Below, one piece after another: positions 7,772 through 46,993 of a stretch of DNA of 64,000 nt. The DNA is taken from IMG/VR virus record IMGVR_UViG_3300033076_001518, positions 1,526-65,525 of that record. One strand, written 5' to 3'. A program made the translations under genes and the position numbers. The stretch's first letter is position 1, and each line of letters starts with the position of its first letter. Source of the stretch: a virus (Duplodnaviria; Caudoviricetes). The notes under the pieces are model-generated. The model was given only the letters and a program-made list of their open reading frames with translations. It was not told the DNA's origin and made no database searches.

Positions 7772-9562
7772 ATGCCTCCGCCGCAGCAAAACGAAGCTCC
7801 TCCGCCCGCGACCGTCTTCCCGCTGCGGACCAAGCCAGGGGTTCGTCGCGACGGCACGGTGCTGGATAGCCAGTTCTACTCCGACGCAATTTGGACCAGG
7901 TTTCAGCGTGGGCTGCCGCGTAAGATGGCGGGCTACAAGCTCATCGCGAACACGCTAGAGGGCGCCCCGCGAAGCGTCTTCGTCTCGGCGGGTACGACGA
8001 TCAACGCAGCCCATGTTTTCTCGACTCGTGGCGTCGACAAGGTCACATTCGACATTCACGGTGGCGGCGGCGGAGCGACGTCTCGCAGCCCCTCGCCCGC
8101 GATGACGTTCAACGACCAGGTGAACTGGCAGGCGACCTCGCTTTTCGATTCTGGCGGTAGCGGCCAAGTGTTTCTCATCGCGTCCGCCGCGTACGACGCC
8201 GAGAACATCGCCGACGAGACCCCCGGCGGGATCTACTATGGAGGGCTCGATGCGGCAACGCCGCTCGTCCCCGTGGCGGACGGCTCGGGTCCCATCACCA
8301 CGGCGGGCGGAGTTTGCGTTCTTCAACCGTTCCTCTTCGTTTACGGCGCTGACGGGCTCATCAGAAACTCTAACGCCAACGACATCTCGGTCGCGACAGG
8401 GTGGTCTGGCGGTTTGACCAACACAGCGAATGTGGCCGCCACGAAAATCGTGAAAGGCCTCCCGATGCGCGGGGGCGGCCAGTCGCCGGCGGGGCTTTTC
8501 TGGGCACTCGACTCGCTCATTCGGGTGACACTGGTCAACGACGGCACCGTGGTGTGGCGGTACGATAGCATCTCGACCGACATCTCGATCATGGGCAAGA
8601 ATGCTGTGGTCGAGTACAACGGCATCTTCTTCTGGCCGGGGGTCGATAGGTTCTTCATGTACAACGGCACAGTTCAAGAGTTGCCGAATGACATGAATCT
8701 GAACTTCTTTCTCGACAACATCAATCGGCGGCACGCCAACAAGATGTTCGGGTTCAAGGTGCCGCATTTCGGCGAGATTTGGTGGGTGTTTCCATTCGGA
8801 GACGCGACCGAGCCGAACCACGCGATCATCTTCAACGTCCGCGAAGGCGTTTGGTACGACACGCCGATCGGCCGTTCCGCGGGCGCCTCGCCTCAGGTTT
8901 TCCGCGCTCCGGTTCTCGCTGGCGGAGATGAGCGCCCTTGCCAGATCGCACGCGTTCTTCTCAGCGGCATCCTCGCAGTAGGCCAGAACGTTCAGGGTGC
9001 GACTTCGGGGGCCCAAGGGCGTGTTGTTCGGGTTGAGGGAGCCGCGAACGACGAGATCTACATCGAAAACACAAGTGCGGCGCGGTTTCAGCTCGATGAG
9101 ACGATCGTCACAGTGGCGTTTGCGGGCGGTTCTGGGCTCATCATCGGGCTCGAGACGACGACTTTGAACTCCATCTGGATGCACGAGACCGGTACCGATC
9201 GTGTCTATCTCGACGAGGTCACCGCGATCCCCTCTGCGTTCGAGACCGATCGTTTCAATTTCATGTCGGGCGGCCCAGGTGGCGGCGCTCCCGCAGGGCC
9301 GAACGTTCAAACACGGATCACTCGCATCGAGCCCGACTTCGTCCAGACGGGCGGGATGACGGTCACGGTTCGTGGCACCAGCTACGCGAACAGCCCAGTC
9401 GTGACCTCAGAGCCTTACGTTTTCGACCCTTCTACGGAGAAGATTGATCTTCGCGAGCAGCGCAGACAGCTCTCGCTGCGGTTCGAAAGCAACGTCGCGG
9501 GCGGTGACTACCAGATGGGTCACGTTCAGATCACGCTCGCGCCGGGGGACGCGCGAGGATGA
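7772..9562 (+). CDS. tail nozzle / tubular protein B-like (stabilisation protein)
   Basis: 596 aa, beta-propeller-like composition; RFQRGLPRKMAGY, FFWPGVDRFFMYNGTVQELP, EIWWVFP motifs. Confidence 0.75.
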   Translation: MPPPQQNEAPPPATVFPLRTKPGVRRDGTVLDSQFYSDAIWTRFQRGLPRKMAGYKLIANTLEGAPRSVFVSAGTTINAAHVFSTRGVDKVTFDIHGGGGGATSRSPSPAMTFNDQVNWQATSLFDSGGSGQVFLIASAAYDAENIADETPGGIYYGGLDAATPLVPVADGSGPITTAGGVCVLQPFLFVYGADGLIRNSNANDISVATGWSGGLTNTANVAATKIVKGLPMRGGGQSPAGLFWALDSLIRVTLVNDGTVVWRYDSISTDISIMGKNAVVEYNGIFFWPGVDRFFMYNGTVQELPNDMNLNFFLDNINRRHANKMFGFKVPHFGEIWWVFPFGDATEPNHAIIFNVREGVWYDTPIGRSAGASPQVFRAPVLAGGDERPCQIARVLLSGILAVGQNVQGATSGAQGRVVRVEGAANDEIYIENTSAARFQLDETIVTVAFAGGSGLIIGLETTTLNSIWMHETGTDRVYLDEVTAIPSAFETDRFNFMSGGPGGGAPAGPNVQTRITRIEPDFVQTGGMTVTVRGTSYANSPVVTSEPYVFDPSTEKIDLREQRRQLSLRFESNVAGGDYQMGHVQITLAPGDARG

Positions 9563-9798
9563 GCCTTCTGTCCTCGTACGTCGACCCCTACACCACGCCT
9601 TTCGAGCGCTGGGCAGCGGAGCTATGCGAGCAGTTGGCGAGCTATAATCCACCCTACCCTGGACCGGAAGCCGCATGGGTTTCGTGGGCCGAGCAGCTGT
9701 CTGCGCTGCCAGCCCTGTCTACGTTGGCAACTCCGCTGCCCCGTTCGTTCTCTTCTTGGCGGGTCTGGGGCGCGGCTCTGATGCAGGTAGCCGCATGA
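9559..9798 (+). CDS. hypothetical protein
   Basis: 79-aa Trp-rich ORF coupled by ATGA overlaps on both sides. Confidence 0.65.
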   Translation: MSLLSSYVDPYTTPFERWAAELCEQLASYNPPYPGPEAAWVSWAEQLSALPALSTLATPLPRSFSSWRVWGAALMQVAA

Positions 9799-27386: not shown

Positions 27387-28103
27387 TCAGTACTTGCAAG
27401 GGCCGCCGTTGCTCTTGCGGTAGTGGCAGAACCGGCAGGCGTCGCCGGGCGTGGGGTTGAAAGCGCGATCCGCGAACATCTTCTTCACGCGCGCTTCCCA
27501 CTTCTTGCGCATGTCTTTCGCGTCCTTGCGGAGGAACTCGATCTCGGGCTCGTCCTGCTCAGGGTCCGGGTAGATGCGCCCCTGGTCCAAGTACCACAAC
27601 CGCGGGCTCACCACGTCGACCGTCGGCACCTGCACGAAGCCGGCCGTGCCGTAGAGGTCCAGCTGCAGCAGGTACTCGGCGTTCTTCTCTTCGCGGAACT
27701 TGCCGGTCTTGTGGTCGATCGGCACCAGCGCGTTGTGCTCGACGTTGGTGTAGTGAACGTCGAGCTTGACCCGCAGCCAGCATCCGGTCCAGTCGTTCCA
27801 GCTGGTCAGCGTCCAGTCGCTCTTGAACGCCCACTGCTCTTCGACGCCTTTGACCTGCTGCTTCCGGAGGCGGGCGAACTCCTCCTTGAAGAGCGCCAGG
27901 TCCTTCGGCAGCGTACGCAGCTTGCCGTTCGTGTAGTCCTCGGCCATCTTGTGGATGGCTGTGCCGCGCGCCATGGCCGCGCTCGGAGGTTCGACCAGCT
28001 TCTCGAGATGCTTGTACTTGAACTTGGCCGGGCAGGCCTGGTAGTCCTGGTAGCGAGAGAACGACCAGGAAGTGACGACGTTGGCTTTCGGATTGCTAGG
28101 CAT
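27387..28103 (-). CDS. PD-(D/E)XK (Cas4/AddB-like) exonuclease
   Basis: WSFSRY...CP, RGTAIH, IDHKTGK, CRFCHY...C. Confidence 0.85.
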   Translation of the reverse strand: MPSNPKANVVTSWSFSRYQDYQACPAKFKYKHLEKLVEPPSAAMARGTAIHKMAEDYTNGKLRTLPKDLALFKEEFARLRKQQVKGVEEQWAFKSDWTLTSWNDWTGCWLRVKLDVHYTNVEHNALVPIDHKTGKFREEKNAEYLLQLDLYGTAGFVQVPTVDVVSPRLWYLDQGRIYPDPEQDEPEIEFLRKDAKDMRKKWEARVKKMFADRAFNPTPGDACRFCHYRKSNGGPCKY

Positions 28104-30054
28104 ACGCGATGTTCCAGCGGGAGAGGTCAGGAGCGGGCTCCTCGAGATCCTCGAGGTCGCCCAGGGTTGGCCCGATCTCGCCATCGGACATGAGAGGCAC
28201 GTCTAGTTCGATCGACATCATCGCCTCGCGCAGCCGCAGCATCTCGGCCTTCATGGCCTTGGCTGGCGCGCAGATGTCGTTCTCATCGTAAACGGTGAGT
28301 ATGAAGCGCCCTTCTTTCCGCACGTCGTGGTAGCGGATGATGGACTCTTTCGTGATGTCGGCCGAGCTGCCCTGAACCAGATAGTTCAACAGCTTGTAAT
28401 CGAACGTGAGAAGGCGGTTGAGCTCTTCGCTGAACCGCGGCGGCTCGACGAAGTATTGACGACCGCCCCAAGTACGGATGGCCTCGCCTGAACGGGCGCG
28501 GAACTTCAGCGCATCGCTCAGCGTCTTGAGCCCTGGCAGCACGCCCATCTGCGCCGCACGGAACGCTTTGACGTCTTCGACCGTGCGGTCCATGCGCTCG
28601 GCCAACGAACCGAGCCCTTGGCCGTAGATATAGCCGAAGTTCAGGGTCTTCGTGATGCCGCGGTCGACCTCGATGCCGAGATCCTCGATGATGCGCCGCA
28701 TGAGGAAGTCGTGAACGTCGAGCCGCGGGTTCTCGAGGTACGCGGCCAGCAGCGCGCCGTCCTCGAAGTGCGCCAGCACGCGGAGTTCCTGCTGGTTGTA
28801 GTCGCGCCGCCCCACGAGCCAGCCCTTACGGTCCGGTAGGACGTAGCTTCGCACCTTCGGAAGTTCTGGGAGCCCCGGGAGGTGCGTCGGCATCGCGAAG
28901 CCGCTCATCTCGCCCTCGCGGACCTTCTTCGGCATGTTGAGAAAGTTCGGCGTGTCGCTGCTCGGGCGCCCAGTGCGTGTGCCGCCCGTGTCGCGATCCG
29001 ACTTGGCCTGGCGCACCTGGTTCCAGTTGGTGTGCATCCAGCCGTCGATCGTGTAGTTCAGCCATGGGCGAATGAACGTCTCGAGCGCGGTGGCGCAGCG
29101 CTGGCGGTAGCTGTACGCGGCGGCCAGCTTCGGATCGCGGAAATGTGAGAGCTTGAGCGCTTTCTTGCTCACGCTGAGCCGGCCGGTCTTCGTCGTGCTC
29201 CACTGGGTGACCGCGTCTGCTTTCTGCAGCGCTTTGGCGACCTCGGCGTCTTTGTCGAGATCGAGCGACGGGGCCTTCAGTTTCTTGCGGATCCAGTCGT
29301 CCGCCATCTTCTGCGCGGCGGTGAACTTCGGTTCGTCGGCCTCGAGCCGGGCTACGTCGGTGCGGATGCCCTGACGCTCGTTCTCGAGCAGTATGGGCAG
29401 TAGGCGCCGCTCGCGGTCGTAGGCTTCGCGCATGCCGCGCTCGACCGTGACCTCTTCGTACTTCAGCGCGAAGAGCTTCTCGGCGCGCACGAGGTCGCCG
29501 ATAGCGTAGGGACCGACGATCTCCGGCGGGGCGTAGGCGATGAACGCCCCGGCGGTAGAGGGCTTGATGCCGCCGTAGTCGCGCGTGATCTCTGGGAACT
29601 GGGCCTCGAGCTGGCGCTTGTTGCTCAGGATCCACTCTTCGACCTCGTCGCGCTCGGACTGAGGCATGCCGAGCAGGCGAGCCGCCGCGGGCTTCAGCCC
29701 AAGCTCACGCTGATGCGGGTCGTCTAGGAATAGCAGGAACATGGGGTCGTGCCATACGTGCCACGGCGGAACGCGCAGCTCCATGTGCTCTTCGGCGACC
29801 TCCAGGTCGAATTTGGCGTTGAACGCCAGCAGCGGCTCGCGCTCCGAGGCGGTCTCGTACAGCTCTTTGAGCGCGCGACGCCCCTGGTCGAACGTGTGGG
29901 TGTTGCGCCCGGTAAGATGCCCCCACGCGAAGTACTGCGGTTTCGTGCTGCCCTTCGGACGCACCGCCACGCCCACGGGCTTGGGCGGGTAGTGACGCGG
30001 GCGGAGCCCGATCGGCAGGGTCTCGAAGTCGAGCGGGCGCGGACGTATCTTCAC
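28096..30054 (-). CDS. family A DNA polymerase with 3'-5' exonuclease domain
   Basis: DFET, FNAKFD, TGRPSS..PNFLN, DYNQQELR (motif A), KTLNFGYIYG (motif B), VYDE (motif C); GTG overlaps the upstream stop. Confidence 0.95.
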   Translation of the reverse strand: MKIRPRPLDFETLPIGLRPRHYPPKPVGVAVRPKGSTKPQYFAWGHLTGRNTHTFDQGRRALKELYETASEREPLLAFNAKFDLEVAEEHMELRVPPWHVWHDPMFLLFLDDPHQRELGLKPAAARLLGMPQSERDEVEEWILSNKRQLEAQFPEITRDYGGIKPSTAGAFIAYAPPEIVGPYAIGDLVRAEKLFALKYEEVTVERGMREAYDRERRLLPILLENERQGIRTDVARLEADEPKFTAAQKMADDWIRKKLKAPSLDLDKDAEVAKALQKADAVTQWSTTKTGRLSVSKKALKLSHFRDPKLAAAYSYRQRCATALETFIRPWLNYTIDGWMHTNWNQVRQAKSDRDTGGTRTGRPSSDTPNFLNMPKKVREGEMSGFAMPTHLPGLPELPKVRSYVLPDRKGWLVGRRDYNQQELRVLAHFEDGALLAAYLENPRLDVHDFLMRRIIEDLGIEVDRGITKTLNFGYIYGQGLGSLAERMDRTVEDVKAFRAAQMGVLPGLKTLSDALKFRARSGEAIRTWGGRQYFVEPPRFSEELNRLLTFDYKLLNYLVQGSSADITKESIIRYHDVRKEGRFILTVYDENDICAPAKAMKAEMLRLREAMMSIELDVPLMSDGEIGPTLGDLEDLEEPAPDLSRWNIAYA

Positions 30055-30593
30055 AGACTCACCCGTGCGATCTCGGAGCCTTCCATGAAGTGGGATGACA
30101 AAGCGCCGCAAGGCACCACGTCGCTCGTGAAGCGGCAAGAGACGGCGATGATCGTCTCAGTGGGCGGCGGTGGCGGTGGCGCGAGGCCATCCTCTTTCGC
30201 GCATTTCATTTCGTGCTCCCAAGCCCAGAGCGAACGCTTTGGGTCGCACGAAACTTCGTACTCGTCTAGTCGCGGGTGGCGCTGCCAGCAGATGGTCCCG
30301 TGGGGAGCCGGCCAGCCGGGGCGCAGCGAGTCCAGGAAAAGTTCCAGGAGTCGCGCGATCTGAGCATCCTTCGGCTTCGCCGGGTCGACTCGCGCAGCAA
30401 GACCGAACGAAGAGTAGACGTACTCCTCGCCGTTGATCTTCGTCGACCACGTGGTGCCGACTTCCGAATGTACGTAAAGGAAGAGCCGTTCGATCGCACG
30501 CTTCAGATCGTTCAGCTGGCGCGCGCGGGCGGCAAAGGGTGCGGGGCGGGGGTCGTCGACAACGTCGAGCGTCATGTTCGGCGACATCCTCAT
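30051..30593 (-). CDS. hypothetical protein
   Basis: ATGA/GTGA coupling on both sides. Confidence 0.55.
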   Translation of the reverse strand: MRMSPNMTLDVVDDPRPAPFAARARQLNDLKRAIERLFLYVHSEVGTTWSTKINGEEYVYSSFGLAARVDPAKPKDAQIARLLELFLDSLRPGWPAPHGTICWQRHPRLDEYEVSCDPKRSLWAWEHEMKCAKEDGLAPPPPPPTETIIAVSCRFTSDVVPCGALSSHFMEGSEIARVSL

Positions 30594-31099: not shown

Positions 31100-31243
31100 T
31101 GGCGCCGTCCTCAGAGTGAAATTGGCGGTGGTCCGGCGTTGGCCTTTCGCCGGGGTCCTTTACTTCTAGACGCGCCCGTACCCGCGCGCCACGCAGAACT
31201 CAGCCGTCGCCGGGTCCACGTTGCTGCAGCCGTCGCTGCAGAT

Positions 31244-32215
31244 TCAGTACTTCGCCTTCTTGGCCGGCGCCGGAGCGGCTTTCGCCGGGGGCGCCGCAGG
31301 CTTGCCGCCCGCCGCCTTGGCCATCGCCTGCGCGGCGCGGCCCACGGGCTTCATGGGCGCCGCCTTGGCCATCGCCTGCGCGGCGCGGCCCACGGGCTTC
31401 ATGGGCGCGGCCGGAGGCTGGCGAGCCGGCGCGCGACCACGCGGCGCCGGAGCGGGCGCCGGGGCCTCCATCTGCACGTACGGCGTGGTCAGCTGGGGCT
31501 TGACCTTCTCGATGAGCTTCTCGAGCGCGTCGAACGTCTCGTCCGTGAAGTCGACCAGCTCCTTGAACGTGAACAGGATCTTGAACTGGGACTTCGCGTC
31601 CGGCACGACCTTCACCGTCGTGACCACGCCCCAGTACGGGCGCCCCAGCTCCTTCAGGTCCTGGCGCACGTAGGTGGCCCAGCCCTTGACGCTCATCACC
31701 GGCACCTTCAGCACCCGCACCTCGGCGGACGCGATGTCGTCGGCGGAGCTGACGCAGTCGGCCGTGATCAGCGCCAGGCGCCGCACGTTCTTGCAGGCCT
31801 TGCCCTTGCGGCCCGGCGTCGGGTCGGAGCCCATGGCGTTCGCCCAGCAGCCGGCGCACAGCCCGTTGTCGTCACCCTGCTTGTCGGAGGCCTCCTCGTG
31901 CGGGGCCATCGAGCCCTCGGGGTCCTCGGCGTCGGGGTCGCCGAACGAGTAGCAGGACGGGATCTGGTGACTGTCGGGGTTGTACGGGCCATCGAATTTC
32001 TGGTTCTCGTGCACCGCCACGAGGACGACCACGTCGAGCTCGTTGCCGGGCACCGGCCGCTCGTCGACGGTGAGCACGCCGCCTCGCGTACTGATGCCGC
32101 TGAGCATGCTGACGGGGCGTTCGGCCTTGGCCGACTTCTCGGCAGCGGTGGCCATCTTGGCCTCCCACACCGTGAGCGAGCGCGAGGCGGAGGGCTTGAC
32201 TTTGGAACTGGGCAT
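31244..32215 (-). CDS. putative single-stranded-DNA-binding / replication accessory protein
   Basis: 323 aa in the replication block; C..C..N..GS...GKACKN.RRLA motif; low-complexity Ala/Pro/Lys tail. Confidence 0.55.
   Translation of the reverse strand: MPSSKVKPSASRSLTVWEAKMATAAEKSAKAERPVSMLSGISTRGGVLTVDERPVPGNELDVVVLVAVHENQKFDGPYNPDSHQIPSCYSFGDPDAEDPEGSMAPHEEASDKQGDDNGLCAGCWANAMGSDPTPGRKGKACKNVRRLALITADCVSSADDIASAEVRVLKVPVMSVKGWATYVRQDLKELGRPYWGVVTTVKVVPDAKSQFKILFTFKELVDFTDETFDALEKLIEKVKPQLTTPYVQMEAPAPAPAPRGRAPARQPPAAPMKPVGRAAQAMAKAAPMKPVGRAAQAMAKAAGGKPAAPPAKAAPAPAKKAKY
31311..31406 (-). repeat. 48-nt perfect tandem duplication encoding APMKPVGRAAQAMAKA twice
   Basis: gccgccttggccatcgcctgcgcggcgcggcccacgggcttcatgggc at 31311-31358 and 31359-31406. 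Confidence 0.9.
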
Positions 32216-34307: not shown

Positions 34308-36443
34308 CTAGAACTTCTGCGGCTTCGCAGCGGGGGCCTTCATCGTGCGAGTGCGCTCGTACTCTTTCCGCAGCTCTTCGGTCGTCGCACGAACCCACTT
34401 AGCGTGGTTGCGCAGGGCGCAGAGTCGCACCAGCTTGCCGCCTGCGTATATCTGCGCGTTCGAGGGGTTGTCCCGCGGATAGAGCGGATCGACTCCGAGC
34501 TCCTTGAGCTTCCGACTCATCAGGTTCGGCGATGCGTGCTTGTGCCCCTCGGCCTCGTACAGCATCGCCAGCTCCGACAGCGTTATCAGATCGGAGTTGT
34601 TGAACCGTTTCAGCACCATGTCGGGGTGGTCCCGCACGCCCGCCAGCCAAGTCTCAAGCTCGGTGCGAGTGTGCGCGATCATCTCCAGCTTGGCGCTCGT
34701 GTCGGGCGGGCGCGCCATGGGGTCGAACTGCGAGGTATCGACCTCGTGCAGCAGGTGATGCATGAGCGCGGCGCGGCCCGCGTCGGAGCGGCGCCACTTG
34801 TCGTAGTCGTTGTAGAACGCCCGCTCAAGCGGGCCGCCGCGCACCTCGTGAATGAAGAACCGGCGATCGTCGTCCTCGAGATAGAAGCAGTCGGGGGCGT
34901 TGGCTGTGAAGTAGTAGTTGATGACGTCGGCGAGGCGGTACTGAGGGATGTTCTTGATGTTGATCTCTACCTTCTCGCGAGTGATCATCGTCTTGAGCTT
35001 GTTCGCGACGCGGCGCGAGTCGTTACCGGTGATGTCGTCGCCCATGACGAACTGCCGGCTTCGCGCCCACTCGTTGAATTGAACCTGTCCTTCGATGTGC
35101 GAGTCGTCTATCTCGTAGAAGTGCTCGCCGTACAAGTCCCCCAGCGTGTAGCCGATGAGGCTCTTACCGGTGCCTTTGCGGATGCCCCATATCGCTACTG
35201 CGTTGCGGAGTTTAGTCCCGGGGTACTGGATGGGGAACGCGGCCCAGGCTTCGAAGTACCGGCGGGCGTCGGGCTCGCCGTCGAAGATGTAGTCCAGCAA
35301 CCGGCGCCAAGGGTCGATCGAGCCGCGCTTCGGTAGGTAGGGCCACCCTTTCCAGGTGTTCAGCTCACGGGCGAGCGTGATCTCTTCCTCGCCGGGAGCG
35401 AACACCATGCGCTTCGCCACCGCGCGCAGCGGCCACTTGACCCAGTCGGGGGCCAGTTGGCGGACCTCCATTTTCGGCATGCCCTTGGCGTCGAACGCCT
35501 GGCGCGTGTACTGGCGGTCGGCGTAGCGGTGGGCGGTGAAGTCGTGGGCGCGTACGATCTGGCCGTCCGACCTCACGACCATGAAGCCCGGGTCCTGGAC
35601 GTAGATGACCTCGGCGTTGAGCCGGTGAAGCTCCCTCCCGAGCGAGTAGGGCTCGGACGACTCCGACAGCTCTACAAACCGCTCCACGCCTTCGGCGACT
35701 AGGTAGTCGTCTAGCGCGCATTTCTCACCTTCTACAAGTTCCGGCAGTCGCACGATCTTCACGATCGCTCCGGCGCGCGTCAGCTCTTCGGCCAAGGCCT
35801 GCTCGGCGCGGCAAACGTCGGTGTTGAGCGCGGCGTCCGAGTCGTAGGCGATCAACACCGTGCGCTCGTCCCACTGAACGCTCGCTAACTCGGGCAGCAG
35901 ACGCGCTCCCATCTTCTTGCTACGGAAGCTCCACACTCCTCCGAGCCCCACAGTGGGGAGCCCGAGCTTGGTCGCGATCGCGGCTTTCTTCTCGCCCTCG
36001 GTTACCACGAGCGGCACCTTCGCGTCCGCCAGCACCAGATCCCAGCGCGTGAACGGAGCCCAGTACACGCCGGGCGGCGAATCGGGCGGTTGGGAGTAAC
36101 GGCGGGCTTTCTTACTCCCTAGGATCGCGAAGCCCTTGCCGCGGGTGTCCTCCAGGTAGCGGTAGCGGTACGTGTCGGTGCGCTCGGCGCCCTCCACGGT
36201 GAAGTAGGGGATGCGGTAGCCGGCGCCGGGCGGTAGGATCTCCGGAAGCTCGCCGCGTTCGTACGGCCGGAGCTTCATGACGCGGGCGTCCGCCTCGTCT
36301 AGACCGCTACGGGCGAGGTCCTCGAGCATGCTCGCCCACAACGCAGCGGGCGGCGATCCAGACTTTGTCTTAGGTTTGGCGGGGACGGCGTCCGTGGCGT
36401 TGCGACGGGCGGCCGCACGCGCAGCGGGGGATGGCTTGGGCAA
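34308..36443 (-). CDS. primase-helicase fusion (DUF3854 Toprim plus SF3/DUF5906 NTPase)
   Basis: VVTEGEKKA, LGGVWSF, IAYDSD, CALDDYL (Toprim); GIRKGTGKS Walker A, VMGDD, KLKTMIT...INIKN, FTANAPD; TTG start. Confidence 0.9.
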   Translation of the reverse strand: MPKPSPAARAAARRNATDAVPAKPKTKSGSPPAALWASMLEDLARSGLDEADARVMKLRPYERGELPEILPPGAGYRIPYFTVEGAERTDTYRYRYLEDTRGKGFAILGSKKARRYSQPPDSPPGVYWAPFTRWDLVLADAKVPLVVTEGEKKAAIATKLGLPTVGLGGVWSFRSKKMGARLLPELASVQWDERTVLIAYDSDAALNTDVCRAEQALAEELTRAGAIVKIVRLPELVEGEKCALDDYLVAEGVERFVELSESSEPYSLGRELHRLNAEVIYVQDPGFMVVRSDGQIVRAHDFTAHRYADRQYTRQAFDAKGMPKMEVRQLAPDWVKWPLRAVAKRMVFAPGEEEITLARELNTWKGWPYLPKRGSIDPWRRLLDYIFDGEPDARRYFEAWAAFPIQYPGTKLRNAVAIWGIRKGTGKSLIGYTLGDLYGEHFYEIDDSHIEGQVQFNEWARSRQFVMGDDITGNDSRRVANKLKTMITREKVEINIKNIPQYRLADVINYYFTANAPDCFYLEDDDRRFFIHEVRGGPLERAFYNDYDKWRRSDAGRAALMHHLLHEVDTSQFDPMARPPDTSAKLEMIAHTRTELETWLAGVRDHPDMVLKRFNNSDLITLSELAMLYEAEGHKHASPNLMSRKLKELGVDPLYPRDNPSNAQIYAGGKLVRLCALRNHAKWVRATTEELRKEYERTRTMKAPAAKPQKF

Positions 36444-36466
36444 CTTCTATTCTCGCTCAACAGAAG

Positions 36467-36660
36467 GAAGGCTCAGAAGTGGGGCGTAGACCGCGCGCCG
36501 TACGCTACCAGGCCGGTTGGCCGTTTCGCGGCCATCACGCCTACAGCGCCCTGCGAAGAACGGCTGGAGAAGCGGAGCCACAACCGGGAGCGAGCCGGAA
36601 CAGTCAGTCGAGCTGGGGTTCGTCGCGTCGTGCGCACGGGCGCCCCACTCCTGAACCTTC
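36467..36660 (-). ncRNA. candidate structured RNA / 5' leader closed by a 20-bp stem
   Basis: 36641-36660 and 36467-36486 form an 18/20 inverted repeat; both mismatches are G:U pairs only on the minus strand; internal hairpins present. Confidence 0.5.
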
Positions 36661-36669
36661 GGGGTGACG

Positions 36670-36699
36670 ATTATAGTGCGTCGCGCCACTCCCATCCAA
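36670..36699 (-). promoter_or_regulatory. sigma70-like promoter upstream of the primase leader
   Basis: Minus strand TTGGAT (36699-36694), 18 nt, TATAAT (36675-36670). Confidence 0.55.
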
Positions 36700-36856
36700 G
36701 CAACCACCGCGCCATGAGGCGTTGTAGGCGATTCGGGCGATGGAGTAGCCCGATCCGCGTCCACTCGCCCACGCACCAGTAGCCGACGGGCGTCGGCGGC
36801 CCCGATAGCCGGGTGTGGCGCGCGGCGATCAACGGCGGGTTGCGTTCAGGTGTCAT
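36671..36856 (-). CDS. hypothetical protein
   Basis: 61-aa ORF, Trp-rich C-terminus, overlaps the upstream stop. Confidence 0.45.
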   Translation of the reverse strand: MTPERNPPLIAARHTRLSGPPTPVGYWCVGEWTRIGLLHRPNRLQRLMARWLLGWEWRDAL

Positions 36857-37154
36857 CGCGGTACACCCGGCTGCGGCTACCGGGTCGAGGCGGCAGGACG
36901 TCGTCCGGTGCGAACGGCAGCCAGAACCAGCCCACTACCAGCAGGATCGCTGTGAACCCGAGGAGCGCGATCGCGATCGCGGGCCACGCGATGAACAGGA
37001 AGATCTTCCACCCGGTTGTCATGCTCTTGTCTTTCTCCTGAAAAATCTCCGGCTCGTGTTCACACCAAGGCGGGAGCCCGTCGGCGTGACGCGGCGTACC
37101 GCGCGACGTGAAGACGACCTGTCGGCCGCAGATACGACAGCTCGGAAGCGCCAT
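36846..37154 (-). CDS. hypothetical membrane protein (possible internal start at 37022)
   Basis: CRICG N-terminus, then IFLFIAWPAIAIALLGFTAILLVVGWFWL hydrophobic helix. Confidence 0.5.
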   Translation of the reverse strand: MALPSCRICGRQVVFTSRGTPRHADGLPPWCEHEPEIFQEKDKSMTTGWKIFLFIAWPAIAIALLGFTAILLVVGWFWLPFAPDDVLPPRPGSRSRVYRDDT

Positions 37155-37165
37155 GCCCGCCTCGC

Positions 37166-38056
37166 TCACATGAGCCCGTAGAACCGCGCGTATCGCGGCC
37201 GATCCTTGATGCCGTAGCCGAAGCAGCGCCAGTGACACACGGCTCCGATCAGCGAGCGCCCTCCGTTCTCGAAGTGAGCCTTGCGCTCGGCGTGTGACAT
37301 GATGCCGGGGCTCAACCGCATCGGGCCCCACTTTTTGTCCTTGGCGAGGATCGTGCCGATCATGCCTTTGCCGATCTTGCCGGCCTTGGCGCTGCTGCGC
37401 TTGGTGCGACCGAGCACGTCGCGGGTGGCCTCGTTCGTGTTCTCTTCGGCCTCTTCGTAGCCGGTGATCACCGCCTCGCCGTCGATGAATCGCTTGAGCT
37501 TGACCAGCCACTCTTGCCGCAGCGAGCTGCGCCCGTTCTTGTAGGGTGCCGTGGGATCTCGCAACATGATACCCTCGTAGCCCTGCTCGATGAAGTAACG
37601 CTCGACGTTCTCGGCCTCGAGGGCATCGGCGACATTCAGGTGCGGCACGATCTCGATGCGGTCGCAGCCAGCGAACTCCTCGGACAGAAAAGTGAAGTTG
37701 GCTTCGAACTCCGGGGCCAAACGCTCCGGCGAGTCGAACAGGTGGAACGTGAAGTCCGGCGTGCCGTCGCGCCGCTTGATCCCCGACATCGTCCGCCCCA
37801 GCACCGTCCCCTCGCCGGTCTCGACCGGGCTGCCGACGATCAGCTCCCCGTCGAGGTTGTGCAGCCCGTTGGCGCGCACCCAGTCCTGAAGGTACCCGTT
37901 CGGGAGAGGCTCCGCGTTGCGCGAGTACGCGACGCCTTCCCAGATGACGCAGCGCAGCCCGTCCAGCTTGGGACTGCCGAGCTTGGGGTACCGCAGCGTC
38001 GTGAGGTCGTTGTTGACCTTGGCCAAGTCGGCCGCCAGCATAGGCTTGAACTTCAC
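37166..38056 (-). CDS. ATP-dependent DNA ligase
   Basis: SPKLDGLR (motif I), LDGEL, FHLFD, EGIMLR, VKLK. Confidence 0.92.
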   Translation of the reverse strand: MKFKPMLAADLAKVNNDLTTLRYPKLGSPKLDGLRCVIWEGVAYSRNAEPLPNGYLQDWVRANGLHNLDGELIVGSPVETGEGTVLGRTMSGIKRRDGTPDFTFHLFDSPERLAPEFEANFTFLSEEFAGCDRIEIVPHLNVADALEAENVERYFIEQGYEGIMLRDPTAPYKNGRSSLRQEWLVKLKRFIDGEAVITGYEEAEENTNEATRDVLGRTKRSSAKAGKIGKGMIGTILAKDKKWGPMRLSPGIMSHAERKAHFENGGRSLIGAVCHWRCFGYGIKDRPRYARFYGLM

Positions 38057-38265
38057 TCGACGTCCTGTGGTTGAATCTTGAACATCCAATCCGAGTCCAA
38101 CGCATCGGGCGCGCAGAACTCGGCCCTCGGAAACTCGCGCAAAACCGCGGAGCGGAAATCGGCGATCCTCATCTCCGGCCATCGCCCGGACCACGCCAGC
38201 ACCCAAGCGTTAGCGGTTCGGGCTTCGTTACGAACCCAGGCGCAGAAGATAGCGAACCGACTCAT
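38053..38265 (-). CDS. hypothetical protein
   Basis: ATGA/GTGA coupling on both sides. Confidence 0.5.
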   Translation of the reverse strand: MSRFAIFCAWVRNEARTANAWVLAWSGRWPEMRIADFRSAVLREFPRAEFCAPDALDSDWMFKIQPQDVE

Positions 38266-39335: not shown

Positions 39336-40895
39336 TCACTTCGCCGGCATCAGGACCAGCTCAACCTTCGCGCGGGTGGCCGCCACGTAGCACAGGTTGT
39401 CCTCCTGCGCACGTTCCCAGTCCAACCGGGCCCAGGGCGAGGCGCCCGTCTCGAGCCACACCACGCGGCCCCACTCGCGGCCCTTGGCCTTGTGAATCGA
39501 GCTGAACGTGACCTGCGGGCGGGGCGTGCCTTCGGCGGTGTCGGCGAAGAGGGCGTCGATCTCGGCCAGCAGGTCCGCCACCGCCCCGGCGCCGCGGGTC
39601 TTCTCGCGCACGCGGGCGATCAGCACATTCAGGCAGGTGACCTTGTCCTCGAGCGTTACCGCCTGGGACTCCTTGTCCTTGGCGCGCAGCTTCGCGGTCT
39701 CCGACTCGGCGTAGGTCTCCAGGTAGGAGGCGAGCTTCGTCAGCGACTCGGTCTTCCAACGGGTCGCGAGGTCCTTCAGCCCTTGGCCGATCTCGCGCCC
39801 CTCGATCCGCGCGGGAATGCCGGCGGCGATGAGCGCGTACACGTGCGTCACGAGCGGAGCGTTGAACCGGCACAGCACCGCGTCGCCCGGCCGGGCTTCC
39901 TTGGCCAGGTCCTTGATCCCCGCGTTGCGCACCACGCCTTCGGGCGCGGTCGCGTGCGCTTGGATGTGATCGACCCAGGTCTGCGCGAACTCGACCACCT
40001 TCTTCGGGCAGCGGTACGTCACCGTCAGCGGCAGGCGGATGGCGTTGGTGCGCGCGGCGATCAGGTCCAGCGCGTCGAAGTCGGCGCCCGTGAACCCGTA
40101 GATGGCCTGGTGCGGGTCGCCCACCGCGACCAGGCGGCCGGACTTCTTCAGCATCCGCAGCGCCAGCTCGCGGCGCGTGGCGTTGGTGTCTTGGGCCTCG
40201 TCGACGAGCACCCAGTCGTGGGCCCAGACGCGGGCGTTGTGCACCAGCGGGGCGTAGATCATGTCGTCGTAGTCGATCACGCCGCTGCAGGTCTCGTTCG
40301 AGATGCGCAGGACGCGGCTCGCCAGGTCAACCGCCTCGGTGGTGCGGTCGGTGCCGCGGAGCTGATCGCGCGGAATCTCGAGGTTGAAGTGCTCGATGAG
40401 GCCGTCCCACGCCTCGCGGGTCTCGGCCTGGAGGACGTGAAGCCCGGCCTGCTTGGCGAGGCTCACCAGGCGCAGCACCGGGGCCTCCAGCGGGCGGAGC
40501 GCCGGGTTGGCGCCGCTGAACGCGCTGCGGAAGATGTCGCGGCACTTGGCGCCCTCGACCTTCACGTTCGGGGCGGCGCGGCGCCAGAAGCGGAAGCCCG
40601 CGGCGTGGAACGTGCTGACGTCGACCTTCGCGGCGACGTTCGCCACGCGGGAGCGGATCTCCTCGGCGATCGCCTTGTTGTAGGCGCCGAAGAAGACGTC
40701 GCCGCGCATGAGCCCGAGCGCGTGGACCAGCGTGGTGGTCTTGCCGGCGCCGGCCACCGCCTCCAGGACGCAGCTGCCGCTGCCGTTCTGAACCCAGCCG
40801 AAGAAGTCGGCCTGCTGGGGGCTGGGGGTGAAGACGGCGGGGGCCTTGGCGGCGCCGCCAAGCTTGGCGAGACGATCGGCGGAGAGGGCGGTCAC
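39336..40895 (-). CDS. UvrD/Rep-like superfamily 1 helicase
   Basis: AVAGAGKTT, STFHA, LVDEAQD, VGDPHQAIYGF, TYRCP, SSIHKAKGREW, NLCYVAATRAK. Confidence 0.92.
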   Translation of the reverse strand: MTALSADRLAKLGGAAKAPAVFTPSPQQADFFGWVQNGSGSCVLEAVAGAGKTTTLVHALGLMRGDVFFGAYNKAIAEEIRSRVANVAAKVDVSTFHAAGFRFWRRAAPNVKVEGAKCRDIFRSAFSGANPALRPLEAPVLRLVSLAKQAGLHVLQAETREAWDGLIEHFNLEIPRDQLRGTDRTTEAVDLASRVLRISNETCSGVIDYDDMIYAPLVHNARVWAHDWVLVDEAQDTNATRRELALRMLKKSGRLVAVGDPHQAIYGFTGADFDALDLIAARTNAIRLPLTVTYRCPKKVVEFAQTWVDHIQAHATAPEGVVRNAGIKDLAKEARPGDAVLCRFNAPLVTHVYALIAAGIPARIEGREIGQGLKDLATRWKTESLTKLASYLETYAESETAKLRAKDKESQAVTLEDKVTCLNVLIARVREKTRGAGAVADLLAEIDALFADTAEGTPRPQVTFSSIHKAKGREWGRVVWLETGASPWARLDWERAQEDNLCYVAATRAKVELVLMPAK

Positions 40896-40927
40896 TTCGA
40901 GAACTCCGGTGGAGTGGTTGGTGCGTG

Positions 40928-40994
40928 AATTATGCCGCGGTTTTGCGCAGCACGGGGAGCAATCCCTACTGCGCAACCGGGCTATTTCGGCAGC
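40928..40994 (-). promoter_or_regulatory. phage promoter cassette, copy A
   Basis: Minus strand CTGCCGAAATAGCCCGG-N5-CAGTAGGGATT...CCCCGT-N17-CATAAT; upstream of the helicase gene. Confidence 0.65.
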
Positions 40995-41278
40995 TGGTCG
41001 CGCAGGTCGGAGCAGCAGCCCGGGCAGAGTCGGCCGGACCAACCACGTAGGCTGATGACCGTGATCTCCTCGACGCGCTCGTTGCAGGCGTTGCAGCGAC
41101 CCTCGTCGACGCCGCGCCCCTGGTAGACCCGGATGTCGCGCTCGCCCATCTCGGGCGAGAACCCAAGCTGCCGCGCCACCCACACGGGGTCGGACGCGGT
41201 GCGCTCGGCGACGTTCTGGATGGAGCGGCGCACGCCGTGTCGCCCGCGCTCTTCCTGGTACATCTCGAAGAGGGTCAC
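40982..41278 (-). CDS. hypothetical protein
   Basis: 98 aa with CNAC...CPGC; ends in LPK*. Confidence 0.55.
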   Translation of the reverse strand: MTLFEMYQEERGRHGVRRSIQNVAERTASDPVWVARQLGFSPEMGERDIRVYQGRGVDEGRCNACNERVEEITVISLRGWSGRLCPGCCSDLRDQLPK

Positions 41279-41709
41279 AGCTCACCTCGCGCCAGTCGCC
41301 AGCCGAGCTTGACCTGCTCCAGCGCGTCGGCGCCGTACTTGAAGCCGCGCGCCTCCATCTTCGCCCAGGTCCGCGTGAACGCGTCGTCGGAGGTCTCGGG
41401 TGGGGTTGGCTCCGGCTTCTTCGACTGCGCCGCGCTCGGCACCTCGATCTCCGGAACGGGCACGAGCGGCACAGTCGCGGTGTCCTCACCGAGGAGGAGT
41501 TTCTTGGCCGTGTTCGGCAGCGTCAACGAAGCCGAGTAGCGCGGCTGGGGCGCCCCACGCAGCCCTCCCATCTTGTCGGGCCAGACCCAGGCGCGGCGCC
41601 CGCCTTTGTTGACGCCGGTATAACACAGGCGCGTGCTGCGTGGCAGCTCGACTCGCACGAAGCCGCGGGCTTCGAGCGCGCGGATGATCCGTTCCGTTTT
41701 CGTCGTCAT
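41275..41709 (-). CDS. hypothetical protein
   Basis: 144-aa ORF, coupled. Confidence 0.55.
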   Translation of the reverse strand: MTTKTERIIRALEARGFVRVELPRSTRLCYTGVNKGGRRAWVWPDKMGGLRGAPQPRYSASLTLPNTAKKLLLGEDTATVPLVPVPEIEVPSAAQSKKPEPTPPETSDDAFTRTWAKMEARGFKYGADALEQVKLGWRLARGEL

Positions 41710-42230: not shown

Positions 42231-42419
42231 TCAGAACACCTCGCCCAGCTGCTTAGCGATGGCGCGCCCGGCTTCTTCCACGCGCAACGCTTGGCGATCG
42301 ATGATGTCCAGAACGGTCTCGCTGTTGGCCACACGGCGCTCAGCCTGCAGCGTGTAGCGGCGGTCGCGGAGCGCGATCAGCGTCTCGCGAGCGATGTCTT
42401 CGGGGAGGGAGATGAGCAT
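42231..42419 (-). CDS. hypothetical protein
   Basis: 62-aa helical ORF downstream of cassette B. Confidence 0.5.
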   Translation of the reverse strand: MLISLPEDIARETLIALRDRRYTLQAERRVANSETVLDIIDRQALRVEEAGRAIAKQLGEVF

Positions 42420-42449
42420 TTCGCAGGGCTCCGAGTGAGTTGGTGCCTG

Positions 42450-42516
42450 AATCATACTGCGGATTTCCGCAGAGCGGGGACCAATCCCTACTGAAATGCC
42501 GGGTTATTTCGGCAGC
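42450..42516 (-). promoter_or_regulatory. phage promoter cassette, copy B
   Basis: Minus strand CTGCCGAAATAACCCGG-N5-CAGTAGGGATT...CCCCGC-N17-TATGAT. Confidence 0.65.
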
Positions 42517-42749
42517 GAGTCGAGCGCGGCTTGGCCCTCCGGGGTCAGCTCGAACCCGACGGCCGTGTCGTCGCCGTGCGCGATGTTCAATCTAAGCAGC
42601 CCGGCGTCTAGCAGATCTCTGGCTGTGGCGTAGCGCACGTCGCCGCGCACATCGCTGCTGCCCCAGCGACAGTCTCGCCGTTTCACAAGCAGCACCACGT
42701 CGTCGCGCGCATAGCGCAGCGCACGCAACCTAGCAGGCGTAAGCTTCAC
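42504..42749 (-). CDS. hypothetical protein (possible winged helix)
   Basis: ATARDLLDAGLL...FELTPEG pattern; ends in LPK*. Confidence 0.5.
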   Translation of the reverse strand: MKLTPARLRALRYARDDVVLLVKRRDCRWGSSDVRGDVRYATARDLLDAGLLRLNIAHGDDTAVGFELTPEGQAALDSLPK

Positions 42750-42991: not shown

Positions 42992-43380
42992 CACGGCGCC
43001 ACCTCCACCGCCAGCGTCACGGGTTGCGTGCGCTGCAGCGGCACCCACAGCACGCGCCCGCCCACGCCGCTGCCGCCGAATCGGTAGCTCACCGCGGCGT
43101 AGACCGTGGGGTACTTAGACGTCGGGTCGCTGGCCCATCCACGCTTCGTCGAGGGGTAGCCGCTCACGAGCCCGCCGCTTAGGGCCCACCCGCCGCTCAG
43201 TTCGTACGTGTAGCCGAGCTGGAGGCTCGTGCGACGGAGCGTGTTGCGGTAGGCCCCGGCAGTGAACCCGCTCGGCGCGACGACGTAGACGCCCGGTGTG
43301 GCCAGCGTCCGCTCGGCGCCGACGTTCATGTCGCCGAGGTGGGTGCTGAGCAGCATGACGCCGATGATCAGCTCGTTCAT
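42991..43380 (-). CDS. putative small beta-barrel / envelope protein
   Basis: Alternating beta-strand patterns with aromatic residues (TPGVYV, AGAYRNT, LQLGYTY, GGLVSGY). Confidence 0.5.
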   Translation of the reverse strand: MNELIIGVMLLSTHLGDMNVGAERTLATPGVYVVAPSGFTAGAYRNTLRRTSLQLGYTYELSGGWALSGGLVSGYPSTKRGWASDPTSKYPTVYAAVSYRFGGSGVGGRVLWVPLQRTQPVTLAVEVAP

Positions 43381-44801: not shown

Positions 44802-45430
44802 TTCGGCTCCGCGGTCTTGATCCAGCCCATCTTCTGGTCCCACACCACGTCGCGGCGCTGGCCGCCCGCGGCGATGTAGGCGGCGACGGTCATGCCGTTG
44901 CGGTAGAGCGCGTAGCGGTCGGCCGCGGTGCCGCGCTTGGGGTTGTCGCCCTTGTGCACCACCGTGATGATCGCGTCCTCGGTGAAGCTGGCGCGACCAC
45001 CGCCGGCCTTCTTGGGCGCGGCGGGCTTGGCGCTCTTCGCGGCGGGCTTGGCGCTCTTCGCGGCGGGCTTGGCGGTCGACGGGTGAGCGCCCTGCGACGC
45101 GAGGACGCGCGCCATGTGCTCGGCGGCGGAGGGCGTCGCGGGCTTCTTGACCGTGAGCATGTCGCCGCTGCCGCCCAGGTTGAAAGCGAGCTTCCCGGCA
45201 GGCTTCTCGGCCTTCTTGATCAGGGCCTCGACACGCGGGTTGCCCGCGGGGTCCTTCGGCTCGCCCTCGGCCTTCGCGGCGATCAGCGCGGTGGCGCGCT
45301 CGACGCCCTTGGCGCGGGTCTCGAACTTCTTGATCGGGGGCTTGCCGCTGTGCTCGTTGACGAACGCCACGAGCTCCGCCATCGACGCGGCGGCGACTTC
45401 GACCTTGGTGGACTTGAGAGTCAGGGACAT
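44798..45430 (-). CDS. Lys/Ala-rich histone-like protein (paralogue of 23892-24596)
   Basis: AKPAAKSAKPAAKSAKPAAPKK, then NPKRGTAADRYALYRNGMTVAAYIAAGG. Confidence 0.7.
   Translation of the reverse strand: MSLTLKSTKVEVAAASMAELVAFVNEHSGKPPIKKFETRAKGVERATALIAAKAEGEPKDPAGNPRVEALIKKAEKPAGKLAFNLGGSGDMLTVKKPATPSAAEHMARVLASQGAHPSTAKPAAKSAKPAAKSAKPAAPKKAGGGRASFTEDAIITVVHKGDNPKRGTAADRYALYRNGMTVAAYIAAGGQRRDVVWDQKMGWIKTAEPK
45018..45074 (-). repeat. 21-nt tandem repeat (about 2.7 copies) encoding KSAKPAA
   Basis: gcggcgggcttggcgctcttc twice, plus a partial third copy. Confidence 0.85.
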
Positions 45431-45489
45431 GATGCTGGGGCCTCGCTCGCCCGGGACAGAGGGGTAGTTGAGTTCTCTGTCGCTGGCGC

Positions 45490-45551
45490 AATTATGCTCC
45501 ATCTGCAGGATCTGCGGGAAATCCCTACTGATTTGCAGGGTTTTACGGCAG
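45490..45551 (-). promoter_or_regulatory. phage promoter cassette, copy C (more diverged)
   Basis: Minus strand CTGCCGTAAAACCCTG-N5-CAGTAGGGATT-TCCCGC-N17-CATAAT. Confidence 0.6.
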
Positions 45552-45812
45552 GTCGCCGAACTTGGTCCTTAGCTTGAACTCACTCGGCGGGCGATGGCGC
45601 TGGTTCGGGCTGGGTGCGCGCTTGCGCTCATACAGGATGAGCTCCTCCGCTAGCTGCTGCAGCCGATTGCGCAGCGTCGCGGTGTCTTCGGTGAAGCCGG
45701 CTTCCGTGAGCAGGTCGTTGGCCTCCGTTGCGGTGATCCAGCCGCGCCCCTCCAGCAGCTTGAGCAACCGAGCGATGCGCTTCGTGTGCGCCGAGGAGCC
45801 GAGTCTAGCCAC
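45543..45812 (-). CDS. putative winged-helix DNA-binding protein
   Basis: RIARLLKLLEGRGWITATEA...TATLRNRLQQLAEELIL; start uncertain (45812 or 45824). Confidence 0.5.
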   Translation of the reverse strand: MARLGSSAHTKRIARLLKLLEGRGWITATEANDLLTEAGFTEDTATLRNRLQQLAEELILYERKRAPSPNQRHRPPSEFKLRTKFGDLP

Positions 45813-46718: not shown

Positions 46719-46993
46719 AGCGTGAGTCCGGTCTTGGAGTCGTGAAGGATCAGCTCGATCTTCGTGCGCAACACGGGGACGCCGAGTTGCTTGAGCTCGT
46801 GAACGACGCGGTCCATGGCGGACGTCATCAACGTGAGCGAAGAGCTGTGATGTGTGAGGTAGAAGTACGTGTCGTTGCCGAGCAAGGGGTCGCGTGCGAT
46901 CTCGGAGGTCTTCCAACCCTTCCAGCCCGCGGCGACGCGCTCACCGTTGAGCGAGTGACTCGCGGGGATCGTGATGTGGCACTCGTAGTTCAT
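46715..46993 (-). CDS. hypothetical protein
   Basis: YECHITI...LRTKIELILHD; coupled. Confidence 0.6.
   Translation of the reverse strand: MNYECHITIPASHSLNGERVAAGWKGWKTSEIARDPLLGNDTYFYLTHHSSSLTLMTSAMDRVVHELKQLGVPVLRTKIELILHDSKTGLTL

Follow-up and report, generated by a model that had tools for sequence, protein, structure and literature searches.

A probable strand-specific structured leader with a predicted promoter upstream of the primase-helicase gene of an uncultured tailed phage

The primase-helicase gene of an uncultured tailed phage (Duplodnaviria; Caudoviricetes) is preceded by an untranslated stretch of 225 bases whose sense strand closes into an exceptionally long helix directly downstream of a promoter-like site. 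Judged from its sequence and from that of its relatives, this leader is probably a real control element, since the same layout is found, with unrelated sequences, in related phages. The reading that fits best, and to which we assign a probability of about one half, is that of a cis-acting 5′ leader of the primase mRNA, a structure that would protect the 5′ end of the message, is a probable target of RNase III, and would fix both the 5′ terminus and the stability of the transcript and keep its translation low.

Genome setting and start of the primase-helicase gene

The window analysed here is a stretch of 64,000 nucleotides with a GC content of about 66%; it corresponds to bases 1526-65525 of the IMG/VR record IMGVR_UViG_3300033076_001518, which is 65.5 kb long and has direct terminal repeats. 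The element belongs to a replication module on the minus strand, where it lies between small ORFs on the ligase side and the primase-helicase gene (Table 1). In the database call this gene starts at ATG 36329 (673 aa). Its true start is probably TTG 36443, as a first-pass annotation of the window had assumed, because the 38 N-terminal residues read from this codon are kept in the homologues P0003-P0017 (59-73% identity) and because a stop codon (36449-36447) lies two codons further upstream. The full product would then probably be a protein of 711 aa with an N-terminal tail rich in Lys, Ala and Pro.

On the other side of the leader, the 61-codon ORF 36671-36856 looks coding by its GC3 of 0.77 and is a possible gene; a search for a family match to it found none. 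From the ligase stop to the TATAAT box the window has approximately 490 nt (36676-37165) that are missing in the three related loci L082, L084 and L085, where the ligase gene adjoins the promoter. Two successive frames of this segment, ORFs 36846-37181 and 36671-36856, show a coding-like GC3 but no family match; the segment also contains a 15-nt motif three times (at 36855, 36946 and 36976) as well as several short inverted repeats.

Table 1. Positions of the leader, its parts and its surroundings in the window, and of related elements in other phage loci (locus or accession given)
Feature	Position	Strand	Basis or remark
5′ arm of the 20-bp closing helix	36641-36660	minus	pair probability at least 0.96
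3′ arm of the 20-bp closing helix	36467-36486	minus	sequence read, fold, helix scan
Helix extension, 5′ side (8+2+4+2 bp past a 1-nt bulge)	36622-36639	minus	first 14 pairs at 0.92-1.0
Helix extension, 3′ side	36491-36508	minus	partition function
Enclosed interior, branched, poorly determined (113 nt)	36509-36621	minus	helix probabilities 0.4-0.9
Pyrimidine-rich tail CUUCUGUU and 8-bp hairpin	36444-36466	minus	-6.9 kcal/mol, probability 0.97-0.99
-10 box, perfect TATAAT	36670-36675	minus	contains the TAA stop (36673-36671) of the 61-codon ORF
-35-like hexamer TTGGAT, weak	36694-36699	minus	18-nt spacer to the -10 box; 3/6 matches to TTGACA
Predicted transcription start, about 36663	36660-36665	minus	placed by the usual distance from -10 to +1
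Primase-helicase (DUF3854 Toprim-like and DUF5906)	34308-36443	minus	Pfam and PHROG matches; TTG start 36443
Possible 61-codon gene	36671-36856	minus	GC3 0.77, frame plot shows high third-position GC; stop inside the -10 box
Two small possible ORFs	between DNA ligase and the element	minus	replication module
DNA ligase	37166-38206	minus	replication module, Pfam/PHROG matches
Helicase	39336-41489	minus	replication module, Pfam/PHROG matches
DNA-binding protein, DNA polymerase (28096-30138), second helicase	beyond the primase-helicase in the module	minus	Pfam/PHROG
Conserved untranslated leader, phage AXL3	L239:741-968 (MT536174.2, about 46805-46578)		
Conserved untranslated leader, phage PW916	L238:2186-2413		
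Inverted repeat arrays	L011:1759-1868, L052:2363-2463, L056:2611-2720		

The closing helix and the fold of the leader

On the minus strand, the two arms of the closing helix pair over 20 uninterrupted base pairs. Two of these are G:U pairs (U36655-G36472 and G36650-U36477), and the plus strand would have C:A mismatches in their place. This pairing had been noticed in the first-pass annotation, and it is confirmed by the sequence itself, by RNAfold and by a helix scan against shuffled DNA. Of all the helices that the 64-kb window can form on either strand with loops of 3-300 nt, it is the longest with few G:U pairs, the sole longer one being a 21-bp match on the plus strand that includes eight G:U pairs; in five block shuffles of the window the longest helix had 17 bp and none reached 20 bp. 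The next-best long-range helix in the window has 18 bp with two G:U pairs and lies on the minus strand (1389-1372 with 1255-1238), and a 16-bp near-perfect inverted repeat at 42715-42731 and 43021-43037 is pairable on both strands.

Folding of both strands, a check proposed together with the original observation, sets them apart. For the 241-nt region, RNAfold yields -112.2 kcal/mol on the minus strand (z = -4.2, with none of 200 shuffles as good) and a z of -2.3 on the plus strand; for the predicted transcript of 223 nt the scores are z = -4.8 in the sense and -2.2 in the antisense orientation. Past the 20-bp helix the pairing continues, and the partition function gives a basal rod of about 34 bp (20 + 8 + 2 + 4) at pair probabilities of 0.92-1.0. 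The 154 nt enclosed by the 20-bp helix are branched. As for the interior helices that had been suggested, the GCAG/CUGU region is part of the minimum-energy fold, CCGGUUG/CAACCGG has a probability of about zero, and for the UGGCCG hairpin the ensemble prefers another pairing.

The 20-bp helix ends 23 nt before the TTG of the primase gene. Within this short segment a second, small hairpin (36466-36459 with 36451-36444) starts right beside the big helix and reaches down to the base that adjoins the TTG; its loop holds a weak Shine-Dalgarno-like GAG.

A promoter-like site in front of the helix

The perfect TATAAT is situated 9 nt upstream of the 20-bp helix. A -10 box usually lies 7 nt from +1, and the start of transcription that we infer in this way would leave 0-5 unpaired nt before the helix. 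The first-pass annotation had treated TTGGAT and TATAAT as a promoter: the hexamers and their spacing stand, whereas the promoter call itself is not established by the window alone, given the weak -35 box, a silent promoter scanner and a TATAAT count at chance level (two exact copies in the window, about the number expected for 64 kb). The scan called no promoter-like site on either strand of 35800-37400; it passes over the present site because the -35 box matches the consensus at only three of six positions, and the TTGGAT hexamer is not conserved among relatives. The case for the predicted promoter comes from the relatives described below and not from the window's lone TATAAT. The other exact TATAAT is found on the plus strand at 9643, 26 nt before the ATG (9675) of an 829-codon gene; it is bracketed by an inverted repeat of 15-16 bp (9456-9471 and 9695-9710), the 3′ arm of which lies inside the gene.

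Elsewhere on the minus strand, three promoter cassettes (40860-41010, 42380-42530 and 45420-45565) have a common box and -10 elements of the CATAAT/TATGAT type, and lead into short leaders without long helices. The possibility that the primase promoter is another copy of this thrice-repeated cassette was rejected: the conserved box is absent from it, and no long helices follow the cassettes. Since the primase promoter is without the cassette box, the phage appears to use at least two promoter classes.

Recurrence of the layout with unrelated sequences

The leader DNA has no match among GenBank phages, and comparison by blastn and nhmmer with about 240 loci encoding primase relatives detected no sequence relative; the contigs of the closest primases, P0002 (88% identity) to P0011 (64%), are not among these loci. 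The Rfam search suggested in the first-pass annotation brought no family for the leader up to an E value of 10 (the larger interval 35500-37500 gives two weak hits, at E 2.9 and 6.6, both inside the primase gene), and none for the leaders of seven relatives up to E 1. A riboswitch-type aptamer was considered and rejected, as the leaders of different lineages share no detectable sequence core.

It is the layout that recurs. In the relatives, a -10 box is followed within 4-9 nt by a helix of 12-29 bp around 42-154 nt, then by a pyrimidine-rich tail and, 22-30 nt from the helix, by the start codon. The search required a -10-like box (at least 5/6 positions), a helix of 12 bp or more beginning 3-10 nt after it, and an in-frame primase start 15-45 nt past the end of the helix. 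The full layout was found at 6 of 172 non-redundant related loci, L084 and L085 included, and at none of the control positions, which were placed 900 nt inside the gene. In six lineages the helix begins 9, 5, 4, 7, 7 and 6 nt after the -10 box, which would leave 0-3 unpaired nt at the head of the transcript, and it ends 23, 22, 23, 27, 28 and 30 nt short of the start codon. Taken alone, helices of 12 bp or more near the start are barely enriched (31 loci against 23 controls), and the full layout or strong helices are needed to see the effect; the strongest stem of the entire locus falls within 200 nt upstream of the primase start at 13 of 132 loci, where about 4 would be expected.

The closest accessible relative, L082 (primase 59% identical), has a 26-bp helix with three G:U pairs and an exact TATAAT 32 nt upstream. 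L084 (52% identical) has a 17-bp helix and L085 (51% identical) a long imperfect rod. All three have the gene order ligase, leader, primase, with the helix in a ligase-primase gap of 150-190 nt, and all three have an exact TATAAT upstream of the helix in DNA of 62-65% GC. This box lies 4-7 nt before the helix in L084, L085 and L041; in L084 and L085 the TAA stop of the ligase gene is inside it, just as the stop of the small ORF is in the window. TTG serves as the start codon of the primase gene in the window, L084 and L085. Small hairpins after the big helix are also seen in L082, L085 and L041, and that of L041 pairs with an AGGAGG ribosome-binding site. The same arrangement is found in the more distant lineages L041, L064, L013, L230 and L125. 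In L013 (2806-2899) and L230 (2878-2977) the outer six helix pairs (GUCAAC with GUUGGC) and the next ACC are common to both, and the inner helix sequences are wholly different yet complementary, which suggests covariation in an alignment too poor for compensatory changes to be scored.

A constrained leader in two cultured phages

Stenotrophomonas phage AXL3 and Pseudoxanthomonas phage PW916, the only pair of relatives that can be aligned, encode primases 39-40% identical to that of the window and have a looser version of the layout in the 300-nt gap before the primase gene. Here, a promoter-like site (TTTACG, 17-18 nt, TAAATT) is followed after 6 nt by a helix of 16 bp with one bulge that encloses approximately 65-70 nt, and then by a pyrimidine tail and two further hairpins. 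In AXL3 the predicted transcription start, near position 46795 of MT536174.2, falls at the foot of the closing helix (46794-46782 with 46711-46699). The two leaders are 96-97% identical, the identity over 5.6 kb being 85%, and they match in conservation the best-conserved core of the primase protein. The -35 and -10 hexamers are kept and the spacer between them has diverged. Within the predicted helices, the substitutions comprise one compensatory change in the closing helix (U-A to C-G) and three one-sided changes, and no pair is broken. By these comparisons the leader is a strongly constrained non-coding element; the paper describing the AXL3 genome makes no mention of the region (PMC7504290).

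RNA or DNA

The strand specificity proposed for the structure is supported, in the window and in the relatives, by the longer helices of the sense strand and by an excess of G:U pairs. The uninterrupted helix measures 20 bp in the sense and 10 bp in the antisense strand of the window, and the corresponding values are 26/15 in L082, 17/16 in L084, 15/9 in L013, 15/8 in L041, 20/10 in L064, 17/7 in L230 and 29/10 in L125. The sense helix is longer in eight of ten lineages, tied in L085 and AXL3 and reversed in none, a comparison that is biased insofar as several lineages were found by a search permitting G:U pairs on the sense strand. In an unbiased search, which accepts both kinds of transition mismatch, the top stems beside the primase start contain 26 G:U and 9 A:C, and those in other places 164 and 156, respectively. 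In L084 it is the antisense strand that has the better fold (z = -3.2; sense, -2.2). The excess of G:U over A:C beside the primase start points to the sense strand folding as a single strand, most naturally as RNA and less probably as displaced DNA.

Alternative explanations

Could the leader be an attenuator or leaky intrinsic terminator? In that case most transcription would stop some 20 nt short of the primase start and release a stable RNA of about 200 nt, and the primase would be made from read-through transcripts alone, possibly under regulation. We consider this unlikely, although several features speak for it. A pyrimidine-rich, U-enriched tail directly follows the helix in every lineage (five of eight nt are U in the window), with similar tails in L082, L064, L125 and AXL3, and a canonical terminator occupies the same position, some 20-25 nt before the primase/helicase start, in L081 and in Pseudomonas phage P3_CHA of the PAK_P3 group. 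ONT-cappable-seq has revealed 42 terminators inside phage 5′ UTRs and, upstream of the PAK_P3 primase/helicase gene, a short RNA that shares its start with the mRNA (PMC10914365). An intrinsic terminator, however, combines a hairpin, normally with a loop of 3-8 nt, with a U run, whereas the arms of the leader helix are 42-154 nt apart (154 nt in the window) and the tails are C/U mixtures, about half U, in which the U residues are interrupted; in L084 and L085 the tail is poor. A scan calls no terminator there, a small ribosome-binding hairpin takes up the tail in the window and L041, and a terminator has no need of a 5′ arm at the first bases of the transcript. The PAK_P3 gp49 5′-UTR RNA (PMC10914365), which is conserved within its genus, resembles the leader in the succession of a promoter, an RNA of about 160-200 nt and an end about 20 nt before the primase/helicase start; unlike the leader, it stops at a canonical terminator that has a short loop and a U run, and a small annotated gene overlaps it. 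The primases and RNAs of PAK_P3 and the window are not visibly related in sequence, and the window is without a canonical terminator. In P3_CHA (L240:3100-3335; KC862296.1, about 31100-31335) the primase/helicase start is preceded, at a distance of about 20 nt, by a canonical intrinsic terminator, which sits where the published short RNA of PAK_P3 is reported to end, as judged by comparing coordinates between the two phages.

Origins of replication often adjoin the gene of their initiator, as the leader adjoins its primase-helicase gene. An origin, or a primer or origin-activating transcript, would act through a primer or an R-loop, or the RNA or the displaced sense DNA hairpin would load the primase-helicase; we regard a role of this kind as rather improbable. 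The sense strand does fold significantly with DNA parameters as well (z = -3.5), and the leader of AXL3 and PW916 is more conserved than coding sequence, as origins are within a lineage. In some distant relatives, inverted arrays of tandem 8-9 nt repeats (GTTACAC or GATACA type) lie 150-260 nt upstream of the primase gene; they look like iterons or operators, not RNA helices, and they may be origins for this primase-helicase family. The nearest parallel is the ssr7036/asRNA1 locus of Synechocystis pSYSA, which, like the leader (where transcription is predicted), is transcribed, is structured and immediately precedes a gene for a DUF3854-type primase-helicase, slr7037; it is heavily transcribed and required for replication, and its authors infer that it primes replication and compare it to ColE1 RNA I/RNA II (PMC9978351). 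The region upstream of CyRepA2 is also needed for autonomous replication (PMC10079941). In the pSYSA locus, though, an abundant antisense RNA pairs with a small mRNA that codes for a protein, and RNase E cleaves there (PMC9978351), whereas the leader contains no small coding gene and no promoter is called on either strand around it. Nor does the leader have the features of origins of the ColE1, pSYSA or T7 types: there are no iterons, direct repeats or AT-rich unwinding element in or beside it, and the cumulative GC skew passes 36.5 kb without inflection. A helix at +1 and a fixed distance of 22-30 nt between helix and start codon are features of an mRNA, and G:U pairs, about 13% of the helix pairs, are typical of RNA and costly in DNA.

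The arms also form an inverted repeat with 18 Watson-Crick matches in 20 and show no sequence conservation between lineages, as might be expected of a protein operator or cruciform palindrome, of the remnant of an inverted-repeat mobile element, or of a chance repeat. An element that acts only as DNA, or has no function, is nevertheless very unlikely: both mismatches are G:U on the sense strand, with the same bias across lineages, the helix is longer than in all shuffles, and the layout recurs beside the same gene in independent lineages. A miniature inverted-repeat transposable element was rejected, there being one copy in the 65.5-kb genome and no target-site duplication at its flanks. Least credible of all is a protein-coding function. 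The first-pass annotation had named ORF 36447-36776 (109 codons) as the rival functional element, and ORF 36473-36637 (54 codons) is a second candidate; both frames are open, and the shorter has an AGGAG 9 nt before a GTG start. Neither is coding-like, their GC3 being 0.64 and 0.69, respectively, against about 0.85 in the real genes of the phage, and GC3 is coding-like in no frame of the enclosed interior. The 109-codon ORF has no Pfam match, the relatives have no conserved upstream ORF, and long open frames are expected by chance at 66% GC.

A proposed 5′ leader of the primase mRNA

The reading as a leader of the primase mRNA is favoured because the helices are longer on the sense strand, because a -10 box precedes the helix closely in several lineages, and because the spacing between helix and start codon is fixed. 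The first-pass annotation had offered an ncRNA, a translational-control leader, a replication primer RNA and a single-stranded DNA origin structure; a strand-specific leader acting at the RNA level survives, with control of mRNA fate or translation fitting best, and the primer and origin readings lose ground for want of iterons, an AT-rich element or a GC-skew inflection. That the function concerns the end of the mRNA is indicated by the position of the helix at the predicted first bases, by the fixed 22-30 nt to the start codon, which is about the reach of a bound ribosome, and by the ribosome-binding hairpin stacked on the helix.

In the mechanism that we propose, the first bases of the RNA would pair with a segment about 155 nt downstream and so seal the entire leader with a rod of about 34 bp. 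Left outside the rod would be the 23-nt ribosome-binding segment, held in its small hairpin before the weak TTG. The helix at the 5′ end would shield the transcript from 5′-end-dependent decay, and the near-perfect duplex of 17-29 bp would be a substrate of the host's double-strand-specific RNase III. Cleavage would set the mature 5′ end and the lifetime of the primase mRNA, and also the 3′ end of the read-through ligase mRNA, and the stacked ribosome-binding hairpin together with the TTG start would hold translation of the primase-helicase low.

The elements of this scheme have precedents. E. coli ompA-type mRNAs owe their protection from 5′-end-dependent decay to a helix at the very 5′ end. 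The leader would be like these stabilisers in that its helix starts, by prediction, only a few nt from the 5′ end and leads into a short single-stranded ribosome-binding segment; it is unlike them, short local hairpins as they are, in that its helix is long-range and far longer than protection requires. RNase III requires about two helical turns of duplex, and the leader offers 20 uninterrupted bp within the rod of about 34 bp (12-29 bp in the relatives), as against the duplex of about 20 bp or more expected of such a site. In phage T7 several promoters lead directly into RNase III sites, and the sites R1.1, R1.3, R3.8, R4.7 and R6.5 each fold into a compact hairpin of 50-60 nt that has an internal loop. 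As in these sites and in the lambda N leader, the element would be an intercistronic or promoter-proximal RNA duplex of about two helical turns in the replication or early region of a phage; and as in T7, the duplex comes right after the promoter, so that, by analogy, promoter-born and read-through transcripts would share a processed end. It differs from the compact T7 hairpins in closing over a branched insert (154 nt in the window, 42-154 nt among the lineages) and in beginning at the predicted first bases of the transcript, and it has no sequence relationship to them.

It is important to point out what the preferred reading leaves unexplained. A 5′ cap needs just a short hairpin, and neither the inserts of 42-154 nt nor the near-invariance of the AXL3/PW916 leader follow from it, which leaves room for a more specific role of the leader. 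One candidate, tentative and on balance unlikely, is a dedicated replication-control RNA, in which the phage's own primase-helicase would recognise the enclosed, lineage-specific domain, either to regulate its own synthesis through an operator or to load or prime there, with RNA and initiator as a co-evolving pair. Such a pair would explain why the sequence is near-frozen within a genus (AXL3 and PW916) and unrecognisable between genera, and why structured leaders recur before phage replication-initiator genes.

Significance for phage replication control

A phage has to produce its replication initiators in the proper amount and at the proper time, and, to our knowledge, little is known about their control after transcription outside a few model phages. 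Structured 5′ leaders and processing helices are a familiar kind of element in phages; this one is described in no database or paper that our searches covered. The predicted promoter, 5′ helix and ribosome-binding module in front of a DUF3854/DUF5906 primase-helicase gene make a clear and testable example, with the same layout in unrelated sequences of several uncultured phage lineages and a looser version in two cultured phages that are open to work at the bench. Because such leaders share no sequence, annotation pipelines miss them. A practical gain is a corrected start codon for the primase gene and a likely promoter in the genome of an uncultured phage. Taken together with the published case of PAK_P3, the findings suggest that structured leaders before replication-initiation genes may be a general feature of phages.
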